Positions 12,587-19,010 of a stretch of 64,000 bases of DNA are shown here, in pieces. The stretch's first letter is position 1; every line of letters starts with the position of its first letter. The position numbers and the translations under genes were made by a program. The notes under the pieces are model-generated. The model saw nothing but the letters and a program-made list of their open reading frames with translations, searched no databases and was not told the origin of the DNA. This stretch comes from an uncultured archaeon. GTDB lineage: Archaea; Micrarchaeota; Micrarchaeia; Micrarchaeales; CABMGC01. The stretch covers positions 17,242-81,241 of the forward strand of contig CAWHMC010000013.1 in assembly GCA_963830445.1 (NCBI GenBank), written 5' to 3'.

Positions 12587-13276
12587 TTAGATGTTGTTCA
12601 GCCGCATCCGTATCTCCTCGGCATTTAGCTTCGTCGTGAGGAGCGGGATGCGCTCCAGCTGGGAGATCTTTATGGCCAGCTTGTCCACCGTGTCCAGGTT
12701 CTGTATGACTACGAGCTTCGGCTTTATCGGGGCAACGCGCACGACCACCATGGGGGAGCGGCCGGTGCTCACCTGGTCGAAGATGAAGGCGCGTTCGCTG
12801 GTAGTGCCGAAGAGCTTCGGGTACTCGGCGGGCTGTATCTCCAGTATTATGCGCAGGCTGTCGAGCAGGGTGTAGCCGAAGAGCTTCATCGAGTCGAGCT
12901 GCCCGGGATTCGTAACTATTTTAGCGTCGATCAGGCGCGCCAAATCTGTCCCGGTTATCGGAGCCGTGAAATCGTGTATGTAGTAGAAGGAGCCCTGCTC
13001 GTCCTTCTTGTTGAATTTGTCGAGGTTGCGGACCACCTCGCCGCCGCGCTGCGCATCGATGGTGAAGAGCGCCTGTATGAAACGCTTTATCACGCCTACT
13101 CCGGGACTCGCTCGCCTATTGCCCTCATAGTCGCTTATGGTGGAAGTGGAGATCTTAAGGTACTTGGCCAGCTCTACCTGTGAGATTCCGAACAGCTCGC
13201 GCCATTTCTTCATGGTGCTGCCCGGTGTCTCCGAGAATGCGATCTCTCCTGCAATCCGTTCCTGCAAACTGTCCAT
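12587..13276 (-). CDS. XRE-type HTH transcriptional regulator with C-terminal domain (archaeal COG1395-like architecture)
   Basis: MKKWRELFGISQVELAKYLKISTSTISDYEGNRR is an HTH_XRE motif, followed by a domain of about 150 aa. It is divergent from the 13434 operon. Confidence 0.7.
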   Translation of the reverse strand: MDSLQERIAGEIAFSETPGSTMKKWRELFGISQVELAKYLKISTSTISDYEGNRRASPGVGVIKRFIQALFTIDAQRGGEVVRNLDKFNKKDEQGSFYYIHDFTAPITGTDLARLIDAKIVTNPGQLDSMKLFGYTLLDSLRIILEIQPAEYPKLFGTTSERAFIFDQVSTGRSPMVVVRVAPIKPKLVVIQNLDTVDKLAIKISQLERIPLLTTKLNAEEIRMRLNNI

Positions 13277-13399: not shown

Positions 13400-13408
13400 T
13401 ATAAATAA
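13400..13408 (+). promoter_or_regulatory. TATA box of the VirB-like operon
   Basis: TATAAATAA ends 26 nt upstream of ATG 13434. A second AT-rich box, CTTAAATAA, is at 13382-13390. Confidence 0.4.
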
Positions 13409-13433: not shown

Positions 13434-13814
13434 ATGGATAAACTAGGTAAATTTGGTTCGGTAGGCAGTACAATCCTGAAGATACCCCTTATCATATTGG
13501 GGGTGGGGGTCGCTTTCCTGAGGGAGGCCGGAGCGACAGGGACGTTCGCGTTCGATATCGTATCTACGCTCAATAACATCCAGGGCATACTGGTGCACAT
13601 CGGGCCCGTGCTGAGTGCGGTGCTGTTCGTTACCGCAGGGGTGTTCTACGCAGTCGGGCAGCTCTTCCCGAGCCAGAAGCGCGCGAGCCTGCACAGCGCA
13701 GCCATAGACATCATAATAGGCGCCATAATAGTGGCCGTGCTTTCGGTGGCCTCCGCAAGCCTGGCGCTCGCATCAACGAACTTGCTGTCGAACGTCACGG
13801 CAAACGTTCTCTGA
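13434..13814 (+). CDS. VirB2/TrbC/CedA1-like pilin candidate
   Basis: Signal-like N-terminus ILKIPLIILGVGVAFLREAGA. Then two hydrophobic helices (GPVLSAVLFVTAGVFYAVGQLF and AAIDIIIGAIIVAVLSVASASLALA) joined by the basic loop PSQKRASLH. Confidence 0.5.
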   Translation: MDKLGKFGSVGSTILKIPLIILGVGVAFLREAGATGTFAFDIVSTLNNIQGILVHIGPVLSAVLFVTAGVFYAVGQLFPSQKRASLHSAAIDIIIGAIIVAVLSVASASLALASTNLLSNVTANVL

Positions 13815-13827
13815 GCGGGGGAATCTC

Positions 13828-14874
13828 GTGCCATTGAGCCCCTACGGTTTCAGCATAGCAGTCTACGTGATAAGCATAATGATAGCGATAGGCGGGATCG
13901 CTCTTGGGCTGGGATACGCGCTCAATGAGAAGCGGATGAAGGAGTTCGGCCGGCGGGAGCTCTACGAGTGCGCAATCAATGGAGCCATAGTTGGGGGTCT
14001 CTTCCTTCTCTTCGTATCCGGAGGACCGGTGAGCGCGGCGATAAACCAGCTGACGCTCTCCAGCAACACCACGCTGAACTGCGGTCCCTACATGGCTGAC
14101 AACGCCGCGATGTGCCTTTCCTACGATTACCTGGTGAGCCCGCAGCCCTACACGTTCACTGGCGTGGTTCACACCTCCGTGCTCTCTCAGGTCGGGAGCA
14201 CCATAACCGGGCTTATGATACTCAATGGGATACTGGGAGGGATAGCAGGGGGGAGCGTGGACCTGATAGTGGTCCAGTTCTCCGCCTCCTATGCCATAAC
14301 CCCGATAATAAGCGAGATAACGTACATCGTGAAGATCCTCAGCACGGTTGCGATAAGCGTGACGGTCCAGGCTGCAGTTCTCGAGTTCGCAGCGGCTGGA
14401 GTGCTCACCGTCCTGTTGCCGGCGGGTGTGATCCTGCGTACATTCTACCCTACGCGGAAGCTTGGCGGCTTCCTGATGGCGGTTTCCATAGGCCTGTATG
14501 TTGTGCTGCCCCTCTCCTACGTCTTCAACGCCACGTTGGTAAATACCTACTCCTCTGTCTCATCTGGCCAGAGCATAACCCAGGTCTCGCTGAACGCCAC
14601 AGGAGCGGAGACCCAGCTCTTCCATGAGGGCACAGCGCAGAGCACCAACTCAACGTCACAAAACAGCGCGGTAGGCGGTGTGCTGAGCCTTATCTCGAAC
14701 CTCATCAACACAGTTTCGGGTCTCATAAACTGGATCCTCGGCGAGCTTGCGTACTTTATAGTTTACGCGTTCGTCCTCCCGCTCTTCAGCTTGATTGTGA
14801 CGGGGATCTCAATACGCGAGATTGCAGAGCTTTTGGGCTCGGAGGCGCGCTTCGGCAACTTCAAAATGTTGTGA
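13828..14874 (+). CDS. Polytopic membrane protein, VirB6/TrbL/CedA-like candidate
   Basis: GTG start preceded by a GGGGG. About 7-8 hydrophobic segments by eye and two Ser/Thr/Asn-rich loops with sequons. It is second in the operon. Confidence 0.45.
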   Translation: MPLSPYGFSIAVYVISIMIAIGGIALGLGYALNEKRMKEFGRRELYECAINGAIVGGLFLLFVSGGPVSAAINQLTLSSNTTLNCGPYMADNAAMCLSYDYLVSPQPYTFTGVVHTSVLSQVGSTITGLMILNGILGGIAGGSVDLIVVQFSASYAITPIISEITYIVKILSTVAISVTVQAAVLEFAAAGVLTVLLPAGVILRTFYPTRKLGGFLMAVSIGLYVVLPLSYVFNATLVNTYSSVSSGQSITQVSLNATGAETQLFHEGTAQSTNSTSQNSAVGGVLSLISNLINTVSGLINWILGELAYFIVYAFVLPLFSLIVTGISIREIAELLGSEARFGNFKML

Positions 14875-14878
14875 TCTG

Positions 14879-15607
14879 ATGGACGAGAACGAGCTACTTG
14901 ATAGGCTGTATTCCTACGCCTTCTGCGCCGCGGCGTTGGTGGTAGCGGCGTTCTCTTTGCTCTCTGGCAGTTATCTCCTCGCGCTTATCTGCGCTGCGCT
15001 CCTCCTCTGCGCCGGCGCATTCTTCAGTTCGGGGCACATAATAAACAACCTACTGCTAAAGCATTCGAACATCATCGCCTACTATAACGAATACAAGCTC
15101 AGCAGCACGCTGCTCTCTCTTACGCGCCCGGAGGGCAATATGCACAGGAGCCTCTCCGTTGCGGTGCTGCGCTCCGAGCGTGCTTCTGAAAGCTCTCCCG
15201 AGGCGCTGCGCAATCTCATAGAGGGGATGATGGAACCGTTCGAGTTCTCGATACGCATGGTGCCTGCGGACAAGAAACGAATTGTCGATGTGCTTGACGC
15301 GAAGCGTCGCATGAAGGAGTTACAAATCGCCAAGATGAAGCCCGGAAAGCCAGATGCGGTGAACTCGCTTAGGCGCGAGATACAGGTCATAGAATCGGAC
15401 ATGGAGAACATACGGAAGGGAGGGATGGCATTCGATACCGTGATAAGGATAACTGCGGTGGCGGTGGCCGAGAGCCAGATGGAAGCGGCACGCCAGTCGG
15501 TGCGGAGCCTTGAGCGGCTCTGCGATGCGTTTTCTGCGACGACAAAGTTGGAGTGCGAGATCCTCAAGGGTGAGGCACTGGTGAAGTTCATGAGGTGGAA
15601 TTCGTGA
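14879..15607 (+). CDS. Membrane-anchored protein (two TM, VirB3-like) plus soluble domain, possibly the N-terminal part of a split VirB4
   Basis: ATG 14879 lies 4 nt after the previous stop. TM helices AFCAAALVVAAFSLLSGSYLLALICAALLLCAGAFF precede a soluble domain of about 170 aa. It overlaps the ATPase gene. Confidence 0.45.
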   Translation: MDENELLDRLYSYAFCAAALVVAAFSLLSGSYLLALICAALLLCAGAFFSSGHIINNLLLKHSNIIAYYNEYKLSSTLLSLTRPEGNMHRSLSVAVLRSERASESSPEALRNLIEGMMEPFEFSIRMVPADKKRIVDVLDAKRRMKELQIAKMKPGKPDAVNSLRREIQVIESDMENIRKGGMAFDTVIRITAVAVAESQMEAARQSVRSLERLCDAFSATTKLECEILKGEALVKFMRWNS

Positions 15608-16722
15608 AGATCGTGCAGACTCTAAGCGCAACGCGCCTTTCCAACCTGATCGCTGTGCCGCGCCTATCGGAGCAATCCCACGCACAGGTAGAACGTGCAT
15701 CTGACGGGGGCATATTTATAGGATGCACCGAACGGTCGCGGATGCCTTTCTTCATGAACCCAGAGCTGGCGATAAATCCCCACCTCTTCATTGTCGGGAT
15801 GAGTGGCGGCGGAAAGACCTACCTGGCCAAGAACCTTATGATAAAACTCTACGCCGTGCTGTCGTGCCAGGTTGTTTTGATAGATTTTACGGGCGAGTAC
15901 GAGGAGTTTGCCTCCTTCGTTGGCTGTACCTACTGCCGCGACCTTAACCTGCAGCACATATTGGGCATGGAACGGCAAGAACTGGTGTACCTAAATCTGG
16001 GAAACATGAAGGAGCAGGAGAAGATTGCAAACGGACGCAGGGTAATAGCTGAGCTAACCAGCATAATGCGAATGCGCGGCCTGAACAACAGCACGCGTCT
16101 GTTCATCGTTCTGGATGAGGCGTGGAAGCTGCTGCGCTCCGATCCGGGTCTGGAGACCATCCTACGCGAAGGCCGCAAGTATCGAACGGGCCTGGTGCTC
16201 GCATCGCAGCTTATCGAGGACATGGAACGGGAGCTCTGTTCCAACGTCGCGACCTTCTTCGCATTCAGGGTGCAGGACGCGGGAAGCCTGGCACGGCTGA
16301 AACAGAACTACGAACTTGACGATGCCCAGATACTACGCATACAGAATTTGGATGTGGGAAGCTGCTGTGTGGTACAGACCTACAAGAGCGGCAGACGCGG
16401 CGTCTTCACGATCTCGCGGGTGGCTGGGCTCTCGGTGAAGGAGATGTTTGCATTGACTACAGGTGAAGCGATGGTGGAGATTGAGTTTGAGCGCGTTGAG
16501 CGGATGGTGCGCGCCCTGGCGCGGAAGGAGCCCGGCGCGGTGGTGGCGAAGATACACGCGGAGCGAGGAATCGATCTCAGCGTGTTGGTGGAAGAGCTCC
16601 TACGCCTTGGAGCCGATCGGGTGCGGGTGCTAGCGGCGCTGAGGGAGCTGGGGCTCGACGACACGACCCTGGCGGATGCGTTCGCGTACGCTGTGGCAAA
16701 GGTGAAGAAAGATGAGGAGTAG
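15595..16722 (+). CDS. VirB4/TrbE/CedB-like P-loop ATPase (C-terminal ATPase module)
   Basis: Walker A FIVGMSGGGKTYLAKN, Walker B LFIVLDEAWKLL and REGRKYRTGLVLASQLIEDM. Alternative GTG at 15604 gives a GTGA overlap with the upstream stop. Confidence 0.75.
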   Translation: MEFVKIVQTLSATRLSNLIAVPRLSEQSHAQVERASDGGIFIGCTERSRMPFFMNPELAINPHLFIVGMSGGGKTYLAKNLMIKLYAVLSCQVVLIDFTGEYEEFASFVGCTYCRDLNLQHILGMERQELVYLNLGNMKEQEKIANGRRVIAELTSIMRMRGLNNSTRLFIVLDEAWKLLRSDPGLETILREGRKYRTGLVLASQLIEDMERELCSNVATFFAFRVQDAGSLARLKQNYELDDAQILRIQNLDVGSCCVVQTYKSGRRGVFTISRVAGLSVKEMFALTTGEAMVEIEFERVERMVRALARKEPGAVVAKIHAERGIDLSVLVEELLRLGADRVRVLAALRELGLDDTTLADAFAYAVAKVKKDEE

Positions 16723-17395
16723 GCCAGAAGAGACAAAAGGATATCTGCTCTCCAGCATCCCCTTCAAGGCGAGGCTTGTGAATAGGCGCAGGCTCCTGGA
16801 ACTGTTGAAGGCATACCCGGGGCTTGAGCCCGTACGCTACGGCAGCTCGCTGCACTACTTGATACGAGAAGAGGGAGACGGCTCGCATTTTTACATGGTC
16901 GATTTCGGAATTACGCAGGTTACACTGCAGATCTTTGCGAGGACCGCGCCACTGGAGCTTCTCCATGAAGGGATGCTGCGGCTGTTGAACCTCGCCTCCT
17001 TCGTGGGCGAGGCCTACGACTTCGAGATAGCCAGCATCTTCCCCTATCTCATTCAGGTCCTGGCCCGGCAGCACATTGAGCATCTGCCGGAACGTCCGGA
17101 GCGGAACGGAAAGGAATGGGCCGGCGCAGAGATAATACTGGCGAAAAGGATCATAGAGCTGAGGAACGACAGCACCTTGCTAAAACAGCAGATGGAGTAT
17201 CAATCGGACCGCTTGGTGCGAATGCTTGCGCTGCTGCTCCCACTCCGATATCCGGGAAGGTGCAGCATGAACCAAGCGGCGAAGGAGATGGGCGCGGCAA
17301 AGGCGGAGATACGGGCCGCGGTGAGCATCTCTCAGGGAGCAGGTTACAGGGTAGTATGGCACAACGAGGAGACGTTTAGCATGGTGTGGGAATGA
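16712..17395 (+). CDS. Soluble operon protein of unknown function
   Basis: 227 aa with no TM. The ATG overlaps the ATPase stop by 11 nt. The C-terminal MNQAAKEMGAAKAEIRAAVSISQGAGYRVVW could be a small wHTH. Confidence 0.5.
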   Translation: MRSRPEETKGYLLSSIPFKARLVNRRRLLELLKAYPGLEPVRYGSSLHYLIREEGDGSHFYMVDFGITQVTLQIFARTAPLELLHEGMLRLLNLASFVGEAYDFEIASIFPYLIQVLARQHIEHLPERPERNGKEWAGAEIILAKRIIELRNDSTLLKQQMEYQSDRLVRMLALLLPLRYPGRCSMNQAAKEMGAAKAEIRAAVSISQGAGYRVVWHNEETFSMVWE

Positions 17396-17835
17396 ACGAT
17401 GCATTCTCTTATTATCTGTGGGAGACTGTGCCGATTCTCGTCGGAATCGGATTGATGCTCCTGCTGCGGGCTTTGAAAAGGAGCAGCGGCAAGGTGAGCA
17501 TAACGAGTTCGCTGCCACAAACGCTTGATCCGATATCTCTCGCTGGAGAGGGATACATGATGCGCACAGAGGAGATAATCAAACAGTTCGCCCGCGACCA
17601 GCGCATAGTCTCTGGGGAAGACCCAGTGGACTTGGATGCGAAAGACGCGTTCAAGAGCTTTGGAATATTCGACATTCATTATACCGAGGCGCTTCTGCAC
17701 CATAAAATTGATAGGGATAGTATCAGGTTGCTCCGTAGGCAATCGCCTAGGGTGAAGGACTTGATGCTGCAGTTCGGTTCTGGGGGAGCGGCGTTAATGA
17801 GCTATGCGCTCTCCTACAAAATTGAATGGATCTGA
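17392..17835 (+). CDS. Single-pass membrane protein of unknown function
   Basis: ATGA overlap with the upstream stop (GTG 17386 also possible). TM segment WETVPILVGIGLMLLLRAL. Confidence 0.5.
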   Translation: MNDAFSYYLWETVPILVGIGLMLLLRALKRSSGKVSITSSLPQTLDPISLAGEGYMMRTEEIIKQFARDQRIVSGEDPVDLDAKDAFKSFGIFDIHYTEALLHHKIDRDSIRLLRRQSPRVKDLMLQFGSGGAALMSYALSYKIEWI

Positions 17836-18035
17836 GTGATAATATGCTACTTGTGGATGAGTTTTTTGGGATGGTACTAAGGATTAGCGCGATGGCTGCA
17901 AGCACGACTATATTGTGTCTCGCATTTTATCTCGCACTGTCGAAAACCAACAGGTTTAGGGAGTTCATAGCTGCACGGCTGGTGGCATTCCTGGTCGTCC
18001 TGGTTGTGGCTTTCCTGTTAATGAGGTCGGTGTGA
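17826..18035 (+). CDS. Small two-TM membrane protein (CedA1/A2-sized)
   Basis: 69 aa with two hydrophobic helices. 10-nt overlap with the upstream gene. Confidence 0.45.
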   Translation: MDLSDNMLLVDEFFGMVLRISAMAASTTILCLAFYLALSKTNRFREFIAARLVAFLVVLVVAFLLMRSV

Positions 18036-18316
18036 TGGAGTTTAGAGAGTTTTACAGTATCAACAAGCAGTACCCCGTGAAGCGTGTGCAGCTTCTGCTC
18101 ATAGTCATTACTAACCTGTGCACCATCCTCTCCGTAGTAGTAGGGAACGTGATAGTGGCGATGGAATTGTCGGTTATCGTAGCCCTATTCGTATCCACTG
18201 TGCCGCTGCGGAAGGCGCGCCTGGGGCTTGCAAGCGTAAACACGTTAAGCCTGCTTCTCTTGGTCAGCGTCTTTGTTCTTTTTACGGCACTGGCTTCGCG
18301 TGTAGTAGTATTATGA
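18032..18316 (+). CDS. Small three-TM membrane protein
   Basis: 94 aa with a GTGA overlap with the upstream stop. Three hydrophobic segments. It is the last gene of the operon. Confidence 0.45.
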   Translation: MMEFREFYSINKQYPVKRVQLLLIVITNLCTILSVVVGNVIVAMELSVIVALFVSTVPLRKARLGLASVNTLSLLLLVSVFVLFTALASRVVVL

Positions 18317-18378: not shown

Positions 18379-18630
18379 GTGGTAAAAACGACAATTAATC
18401 TCGATTCGGAAGTATATGCGGCGCTGGTGAGCGAAGCTGTCAAGAAATACGGCACCACTAAGACGCTATCAAAACTTATCAATGAGAAGTTGCGTTCAAA
18501 ACATTCCAGTAATAGTAAGCGCGCTTTTGAGGAGGCCTTCGGCTGCTGGCCTATGAAGGAAACAGGTAGCGAGTATACAAGACGGCTTAGGAAGGATTTT
18601 GAAAAACGTTCTAGGAGGCTGGGGCTGTGA
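18379..18630 (+). CDS. vapB: VapB-type antitoxin
   Basis: MVKTTINLDSEVYAALVSEA is an antitoxin-like N-terminus. 4-nt overlap with the PIN gene. Confidence 0.6.
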   Translation: MVKTTINLDSEVYAALVSEAVKKYGTTKTLSKLINEKLRSKHSSNSKRAFEEAFGCWPMKETGSEYTRRLRKDFEKRSRRLGL

Positions 18631-19010
18631 GTTATTTTGTAGTAGATACCAGCGTATTGATAGATTATTTGCGCGGTTTCGGGGAGTCCCAGGGGATTAT
18701 GGAGAGGGTAAAGAACGGGGAGATTCAGGCAGGTATATCAACACTCACCCAGACGGAGCTCTTTTCAGGCAAGGGTTCAGAAGTTGAGCAGACAAGGAGG
18801 AAGATAGAAAATGTGCTTGAGTTCTTTGTGAAGATTAACGTTGATGAACAGGTTGCAATAAAAGCAGGAGAATTTAGGAGGAGATACGACGTCGGGATAC
18901 CGGATGCGATAATAGCCGCGACCGCGTTCATATCAAACGCAAAACTGCTCACCTGCGATAGGTCAGATTTTGGCAAGATCAAAGAGATAGAAGCGGAGAA
19001 ACCCTACTGA
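18627..19010 (+). CDS. vapC: PIN-domain toxin VapC
   Basis: FVVDTSVLIDYL, TELFSG, IPDAIIAATA and LTCDRSDF match the conserved PIN acidic residues. Confidence 0.85.
   Translation: MSYFVVDTSVLIDYLRGFGESQGIMERVKNGEIQAGISTLTQTELFSGKGSEVEQTRRKIENVLEFFVKINVDEQVAIKAGEFRRRYDVGIPDAIIAATAFISNAKLLTCDRSDFGKIKEIEAEKPY

Follow-up and report, generated by a model that had tools for sequence, protein, structure and literature searches.

The chromosomal, conjugation-derived Ced and Ted machines of Crenarchaeota are the archaeal systems closest to the locus described here. In the Ted system of the Thermoproteales, the pilin TedC (Pyrobaculum calidifontis Pcal_0765) carries a signal-peptidase-I leader and its gene is followed by that of TedA, a protein with seven transmembrane (TM) segments; CedA1, from the Ced DNA-import system of the Sulfolobales and Aeropyrum pernix, is reported to be secreted without leader cleavage (PMC9905601). 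Among bacteria, TrwL is the VirB2-type pilin of plasmid R388, whose pilus structure has been solved (8s6h), and the Patescibacteria possess a near-universal chromosomal type IV secretion system (T4SS) with VirB2-like pilins, sometimes in arrays and mostly without a relaxase (PMC12102498). The paper on Ced and Ted makes no mention of DPANN archaea (PMC9905601), and it is an open question how DPANN cells make contact with their hosts and obtain material from them. In this study, a stretch of 64,000 nucleotides (nt) from an uncultured Micrarchaeota archaeon (GenBank assembly GCA_963830445.1, contig CAWHMC010000013.1, positions 17,242 to 81,241 of the forward strand), referred to as a whole as the window, was analysed with respect to one small gene at positions 13434–13814. 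This highly conserved gene is a likely pilus-subunit gene of the conjugation type in Micrarchaeota, and the gene cluster that it heads may link the cells to others. In the literature searched, the coverage of which was incomplete, no paper was found that describes a pilin or machine of this kind from Micrarchaeota.

The nearest relatives of the locus are TedC, TedA and TedB by mode of working, Ced by ATPase sequence, and the bacterial TrbC and T4SS_pilin families by pilin sequence. Similar to TedC, the predicted pilin is archaeal and chromosomally encoded, has a predicted signal-peptidase-I-type leader and a helix–loop–helix mature part, and its gene lies directly 5′ of that of a protein with about seven TM segments, in a system with an ATPase of the VirB4/HerA clade. 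Unlike TedC, it belongs to the DPANN phylum Micrarchaeota, has a longer mature part of 92 amino acids (aa) with an invariant C-terminal N-x-T sequon, and has no detectable sequence similarity to it, as a close-family profile found no PDB chain at E ≤ 10. The system also differs from Ted in its short 375-aa ATPase with a separate 242-aa membrane partner, and in the loci examined no HerA, Rad50 or ParA genes stand beside the Micrarchaeota operon. With CedA1 it shares the character of a VirB2-like two-helix pilin in a chromosomal archaeal machine, and its ATPase is nearest to CedB; in contrast to CedA1, a cleavable leader is predicted, and no CedA1 or CedA sequence match was obtained (NCBIfam, PDB).

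As in bacterial VirB2/TrbC/TraA pilins, a long leader, here a predicted one, precedes two hydrophobic helices joined by a short basic loop, and the gene comes early in its operon; there is also a weak but specific sequence similarity to VirB2/TrbC pilins. However, the other genes of the operon, unlike those of bacterial pilin operons, have no VirB- or Tra-type family match (Pfam, NCBIfam), and the archaeal membrane, the predicted glycosylated tail and a score below the family cut-off separate the protein from bacterial conjugative pilins. As for the Patescibacteria T4SS, both are found in ultra-small, host-dependent cells, and here too the cluster is kept in most genomes without a nearby relaxase, while the domain of life, the sub-threshold T4SS_pilin similarity and the accessory genes differ. 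The phylum, the longer mature pilin with its invariant sequon, the two-gene ATPase module and the orphan partner proteins set the locus apart from all of these systems. We regard the protein as a lineage-specific variant of the VirB2/TedC-type pilin, the gene of which belongs to a chromosomal cluster; the stretches examined showed no relaxase.

The pre-pilin gene and its predicted parts, in window coordinates, are as follows.

13400–13407, + strand: TATA-like box tataaata, read from the sequence, 26 nt 5′ of the pre-pilin ATG
13434–13814, + strand: pre-pilin gene, 126 aa, stop codon within the coordinates (open reading frame and homologues)
13434–13535, + strand: predicted Sec-type leader, residues 1–34 (hydropathy; pattern in 114/114 homologues)
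13536–13811, + strand: predicted mature pilin, residues 35–126, 92 aa (all 22 invariant columns; structure model)
13668–13694, + strand: basic inter-helix loop PSQKRASLH, residues 79–87 (motif in homologues)
13791–13799, + strand: C-terminal N-x-T sequon N120-V-T122 (N120 invariant)

The 126-aa open reading frame (ORF) lies inside an open frame of 130 codons. Its ATG is the first ATG, GTG or TTG of that frame and comes only four codons past the upstream stop, so the start codon is unambiguous. The operon is probably transcribed from the TATA-like box, as an mRNA with a short leader or none at all. An earlier sequence-only reading had proposed the protein as a conjugative-type pilin and had given its translation; the ORF exists and the residues match, except that the string ended in ...STNLL and left out the last eight residues, SNVTANVL, which bear the conserved N-x-T sequon. 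A word-indexed search of 5.8 billion proteins produced 207 homologues at E ≤ 0.01 (best 1e-44), about 110–135 aa long, and the named ones all came from metagenome-assembled genomes (MAGs) of Micrarchaeota, some of them carrying the NCBI label Marsarchaeota. An alignment of 45 close homologues contained 22 invariant columns, all within residues 41–120, and the first 34 residues varied freely. The family was present in 162/201 Micrarchaeota genomes sampled, including 32/35 and 48/56 in the two nearest families. With this number of homologues, invariant columns in the mature part and genomes, 13434–13814 is a real conserved gene and not a chance ORF.

It had further been claimed that nothing else in the window resembles this gene, and indeed the family profile matched the 65%-complete assembly only once. 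Outside the window, the same contig carries a far more distant pilin-like ORF of 155 aa (contig positions 136388–136855, – strand) with a signal peptide and two hydrophobic helices, and with weak matches to TrbC (E 0.014) and T4SS_pilin (E 0.04). It resembles a more distant pilin group and adjoins an STT3/AglB-like gene, not an ATPase gene.

The layout described from sequence, i.e., a leader ending in A-G-A and two hydrophobic helices flanking a basic loop, was found in the protein and is conserved across the homologues. A 19-residue hydropathy scan placed hydrophobic segments at residues 7–32, 48–78 and 83–118. The leader consists of a basic n-region (K3, K6 and K16), a hydrophobic core IPLIILGVGVAFL and the c-region REAGA with Ala at –3 and –1, and by this rule signal peptidase I is predicted to cut after A34. 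When the rule was applied to the 114 homologues with a complete N-terminus, all 114 showed a K/R n-region, a strongly hydrophobic core (mean maximum 10-residue hydropathy 2.67) and small residues at –3/–1, with Ala at –1 in 106; the –3/–1 site was located 3–9 residues ahead of the invariant Asp41, and exactly 5 in 66/114. Being fixed in form but variable in sequence, and preceding a highly conserved body, the leader thus looks like a cleaved Sec signal. As for the processing enzyme, the archaeal model detected a divergent signal peptidase I in 24/26 relatives, among them all 15 of high quality. These Micrarchaeota candidates are open frames of about 340–370 aa with two separated matches to the 158-position archaeal model; both pieces score below the curated cut-off, and the proteins look like an enlarged, divergent form.

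In the predicted mature pilin, an amphipathic N-terminal segment is followed by helix 1 (residues ~48–78, with an invariant G57–P58), the loop, helix 2 (~83–118) and the tail. Modelling by AlphaFold2 (AF2) with the family alignment gave a predicted local distance difference test score (pLDDT) of 78 for the precursor, low over the leader, and of 87.8 for the mature part, which formed two long antiparallel helices (residues 2–43 and 46–91 of 92). The loop motif GQ[LMI][FLM]P..[KR][KR]A was observed in 96/120 homologues, and in the 45-sequence alignment P79 and A84 never vary and R83 and H87 hardly do. By the positive-inside rule, the Lys–Arg loop would be cytoplasmic in the membrane-stored form, so that both ends of the mature protein would face outward; by analogy with VirB2-type filaments, the same loop would line the lumen of a pilus. 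An outward-facing C-terminus fits the conserved sequon, a feature that the sequence-only reading had not mentioned: N-x-S/T occurs within the last 14 residues in 113/114 homologues. The assembly itself encodes two STT3/AglB-like proteins, and Asn120 is probably an extracellular N-glycosylation site.

The family assignment was evaluated with profile models. The best Pfam match of the pre-pilin was T4SS_pilin (PF18895), at 21.3 bits and E 3e-4 over residues 42–102, and in a search of its own genome the same model reached 22.4 bits and E 8e-5 on the pre-pilin; the TrbC model did not match the pre-pilin itself in the Pfam search. Because the pilin models also give matches in control genomes, a lone sub-threshold match of this kind is not enough. 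Among the 45 close homologues, TrbC/VirB2 (PF04956) matched 19 (best 4e-6) and T4SS_pilin 14 (best 2e-6), and any other family, out of 24,736 models, was matched by at most 3. In contrast, when the 45 sequences were reversed, a control that keeps composition and hydrophobic pattern, 0/45 matched either pilin model. When a profile was run against the full set of 1.84 billion cluster representatives, 80 clusters reached E ≤ 0.001, and in the wider set of 63 aligned sequences, i.e., the pre-pilin and 62 remote relatives from this search, T4SS_pilin matched 30/63 and TrbC 21/63. Further, the wider-family profile placed TrwL at the top of 177,635 PDB sequences (E 0.008), with an alignment that spans the amphipathic N-terminal segment, helix 1 and the loop and runs into the start of helix 2. 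Therefore, remote homology to the VirB2/TrbC/T4SS_pilin superfamily is well supported by sequence at the family level, as a specific and not a compositional similarity, and we consider it highly probable that the pre-pilin is a homologue of this superfamily.

Some of the remote relatives have a more elaborate architecture. Two of them, P0140 and P0141, carry two pilin modules in tandem with Cys-rich linkers, and P0174 has a long repeat-rich C-terminal extension after helix 2. P0174 was also considered as a fusion of a pilin with the polytopic protein encoded next to the pilin gene (see below), and this was rejected, as it consists of a pilin domain and the repeat-rich extension. Such extended relatives would be pilins carrying a surface-displayed domain, and the tandem and C-terminally extended forms fit an outward-facing C-terminus and a polymerising subunit.

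The pre-pilin gene heads a tightly packed cluster of eight genes on the same strand, with a vapBC pair 3′ of it. The other genes of the cluster are listed here.

13828–14874, + strand: 348-aa polytopic membrane protein, about 6–7 hydrophobic segments
14879–15607, + strand: 242-aa protein, two TM segments plus a coiled-coil domain on the cytoplasmic side; alternative TTG start at 14822 (242/261 aa)
15595–16722, + strand: 375-aa P-loop ATPase of the HerA/FtsK/VirB4 superfamily, AAA_10 57.4 bits vs. a cut-off of 27.5
16712–18316, + strand: four more genes of the operon (227, 149, 69 and 94 aa), of which the 149-, 69- and 94-aa ones encode membrane proteins

The placement of the gene as first in its operon was borne out, as it leads a strictly conserved operon with an ATPase. 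Synteny was assayed at 80 loci of named Micrarchaeota/Micrarchaeia MAGs, the denominators being the loci with enough DNA: the polytopic protein was encoded directly 3′ of the pilin in 78/78, and further 3′ the ATPase was detected in 77/77, the 2-TM protein in 68/78 and the 227-aa protein in 60/75. The 149-, 69- and 94-aa genes were too divergent for tblastn, and genes of the same sizes hold the same places in relatives. At the genome level, the polytopic protein was found in 76/81 genomes, and the families without the pilin (f9, f10 and f14) were also without the polytopic protein.

NCBIfam CedB was the best model for 33/33 ATPase orthologues (best 6e-26), followed by VirB4-like CD1110, CedD, VirB4_plasma, HerA_antiphage, TraC and VirB4_CagE, and for the window ATPase every reported NCBIfam score was far below the equivalog cut-off (CedB 52.5 vs. 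700 bits). The 242-aa protein upstream of the ATPase, orthologues of which were called at 243 aa, had no family match in Pfam, NCBIfam or PDB with either the single sequence or the alignment; it may be a membrane-anchored partner or the N-terminal half of the ATPase. Since neighbours of the same size occur in relatives, the split between ATPase and membrane partner is conserved and does not reflect a frameshift.

In two relatives, the operon is located among housekeeping genes (rpl10e/L16, superoxide dismutase, diphthamide synthase and translin). As judged from these surroundings and from its near-universal presence in the nearest families, the cluster belongs to the resident chromosome and is neither a plasmid nor an integrative and conjugative element, and a mobile-element reading was rejected on the same grounds. 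Pfam and NCBIfam searches, which were confined to the operon proteins and did not extend genome-wide, found no relaxase, coupling-protein or recombination family, so classical plasmid conjugation is unlikely; nor was any such gene annotated in the flanks of the two relatives inspected.

Toxin–antitoxin or abortive-infection-type genes flank the operon at every locus inspected (window 18379–19010; L013–L016) and differ between loci, being vapBC downstream here, and elsewhere MazE/ParE or PIN with a small partner upstream and AbiEii nearby. On the other side, a 229-aa HTH_3 (Xre-type) regulator (window 12587–13276, – strand) is divergent from the promoter region of the operon. It is not found at this position in two relatives with inspected flanks, which have small antitoxin-like genes there instead.

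Taken together, the conserved layout, the family-level matches to pilin models, the TrwL match and an operon with an ATPase of the Ced/VirB4 clade support the reading as a VirB2/TraA-type pilin. With moderate confidence, we propose that the operon encodes a chromosomal Ced/Ted-like machine that builds a pilus or pilus-like conduit of the conjugation type (VirB2/TrbC/TedC-like), and that the protein is the precursor of its pilin subunit. The 126-aa precursor would be inserted by Sec, and signal peptidase I would cut after Ala34 to leave a 92-aa hairpin. This would be stored in the membrane with the Lys–Arg loop in the cytoplasm and the ends outside, as charge and sequon suggest, and Asn120 on the external tail would probably be N-glycosylated. 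The 375-aa ATPase and the 242-aa partner, acting at the 348-aa protein, may then extract the pilin, probably with lipid, and the subunits would be stacked into a tube with the basic loops lining the lumen, by analogy with the solved F, pED208, T, R388, CedA1 and TedC pili (PMC9905601). Through the resulting filament or channel, DNA or other macromolecules would pass between the cell and a second one, either its host or a member of its own species. In this scheme, the cleavage, glycosylation, polymerisation and lipid content of the pilin, and its cargo, are predictions. Candidate uses, by analogy, are Ced/Ted-like DNA exchange or host-to-symbiont transfer as proposed for the T4SS pili of Patescibacteria, and our confidence in any particular cargo is low. 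The full proposal of a glycosylated, lipid-bearing pilus as a conduit to a host archaeon or to sister cells, by which these biosynthetically poor cells would acquire nucleic acids or other macromolecules, is put forward only tentatively, and we consider it unlikely as a whole.

Several results weigh against the proposed conjugation-type pilus. The pre-pilin itself lies outside strict superfamily membership by the curated Pfam threshold (21.3 vs. 26.6 bits), and both pilin models gave weak matches (E ≤ 1) in 11–12 of 14 control genomes. The close-family profile found nothing in the PDB sequences even at E ≤ 10, a null that covers the archaeal CedA1 and TedC chains of PMC9905601 provided that the PDB copy contains them. 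AF2 produced the two-helix hairpin, and Foldseek searches of PDB with the full-length and mature AF2 models had no match at E ≤ 0.001; what they returned were generic helical hairpins (E > 0.2), with no conjugative pilin among the top 50. Such a yield is unsurprising for a two-helix protein, whose simple fold is hardly informative, and it lends the pilin reading no support. The archaeal signal peptidase I model had no match in the 65%-complete assembly, and the 348-aa protein showed no VirB6, CedA or TedA similarity in Pfam, NCBIfam or PDB with either the single sequence or the alignment. In the PDB, the ATPase profile found HerA (1e-21) above VirB4 (1e-9); together with CedB as the best model, this places the protein in the HerA/VirB4 clade of translocases, closest to the Ced ATPase, and not among the canonical VirB4 proteins.

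The sub-threshold scores, the weak matches in the control genomes and the non-specific fold searches, together with weak matches of the family to DUF1097 and others, are what would be expected if the gene encoded an unrelated small membrane protein with three hydrophobic segments, e.g., a transporter accessory subunit, and the pilin matches were an artefact of hydrophobic composition. However, 0/45 reversed sequences vs. 19/45 and 14/45 forward ones matched the pilin models, the matches were centred on two related pilin families, TrwL was the top PDB match and the linkage to a Ced/VirB4-clade ATPase is constant, and we consider such an artefact very unlikely. The homology and synteny evidence fits equally well a true VirB2-superfamily homologue that forms no extracellular filament and serves as a membrane-resident structural or channel-lining subunit of a Ced/Ted-like translocon, with cargo crossing only the cell's own membrane at direct cell–cell contact. 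However, CedA1, TedC and comparable archaeal VirB2-type proteins form pili where tested (PMC9905601), Gram-positive VirB2-like proteins are reported to form pili in a preprint (10.64898/2025.12.18.695078), and the external sequon and the C-terminal extensions of relatives suit a surface-exposed polymer better than a buried subunit, so a purely membrane-resident role is possible but rather improbable in our judgement. The small size, the hydrophobic N-terminus and the secreted or membrane-bound nature of the protein could also suggest a type IV pilin or a protein resembling archaellins, with a class III signal peptide that a prepilin peptidase would cleave. Against this, the N-terminal 34 residues are the least conserved and have no conserved [KR]-G/A cut site before the hydrophobic stretch, two more membrane helices follow in place of a globular beta domain, no type IV pilin family was matched, and the ATPase is of HerA/VirB4 type and not of PilB/FlaI type. 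The type IV pilin reading was rejected on this layout, and we give it next to no weight.

If the conjugation-type pilus proposed here is real, chromosomal conjugation-derived machines would extend from Crenarchaeota, with Ced and Ted, to DPANN archaea, in parallel to the T4SS of Patescibacteria, and the cluster would add a third T4SS-derived chromosomal system to these two archaeal ones. The analysis predicts the mature N-terminus, the membrane topology and the glycosylation site of the pilin.

The 348-aa polytopic protein occupies the place of TedA, CedA or VirB6, and its position and topology suggest a VirB6/TedA-like role. It has two invariant Cys in the first outer loop, and a large-database search with it returned only unannotated Micrarchaeota proteins. 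Both CedA and VirB6 are reported to start with a pilin-like module (Beltran et al., PMC9905601). When residues 64–101 of the pilin were compared with residues 18–61 of the polytopic protein by hhalign, the expected regions aligned, with an E-value (0.68) that was not significant. In another part of the contig, a 408-aa polytopic paralogue has the pattern YA-x-x-x-LFPSQ(K/R)R in common with the pilin, at an equivalent position and within a 16-residue motif (BLASTP E 2e-4; hhalign E 0.0023, probability 12.5%), where the paralogue carries YALSNLFPSQRREQL, close to the YAVGQLFPSQKRASL of the pilin. This shared motif is suggestive only, as a hint of a pilin-like module in the polytopic family.

The polytopic family is also found beyond this operon. 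A second conjugation-like locus lies on the same contig at contig positions 148500–163040 (– strand), about 70 kb past the end of the window, and contains five tandem paralogues of the 348-aa protein (395–536 aa), an unsplit 502-aa ATPase of the AAA_10 type and two ~275-aa proteins that are hydrophobic at the N-terminus, probably with two TM segments there. Other Micrarchaeota families (e.g., in genomes G037, G059, G004 and G044) have up to 14 polytopic-family matches per genome of about 1 Mb, and some of the matches sit inside open frames of more than 1000 aa.

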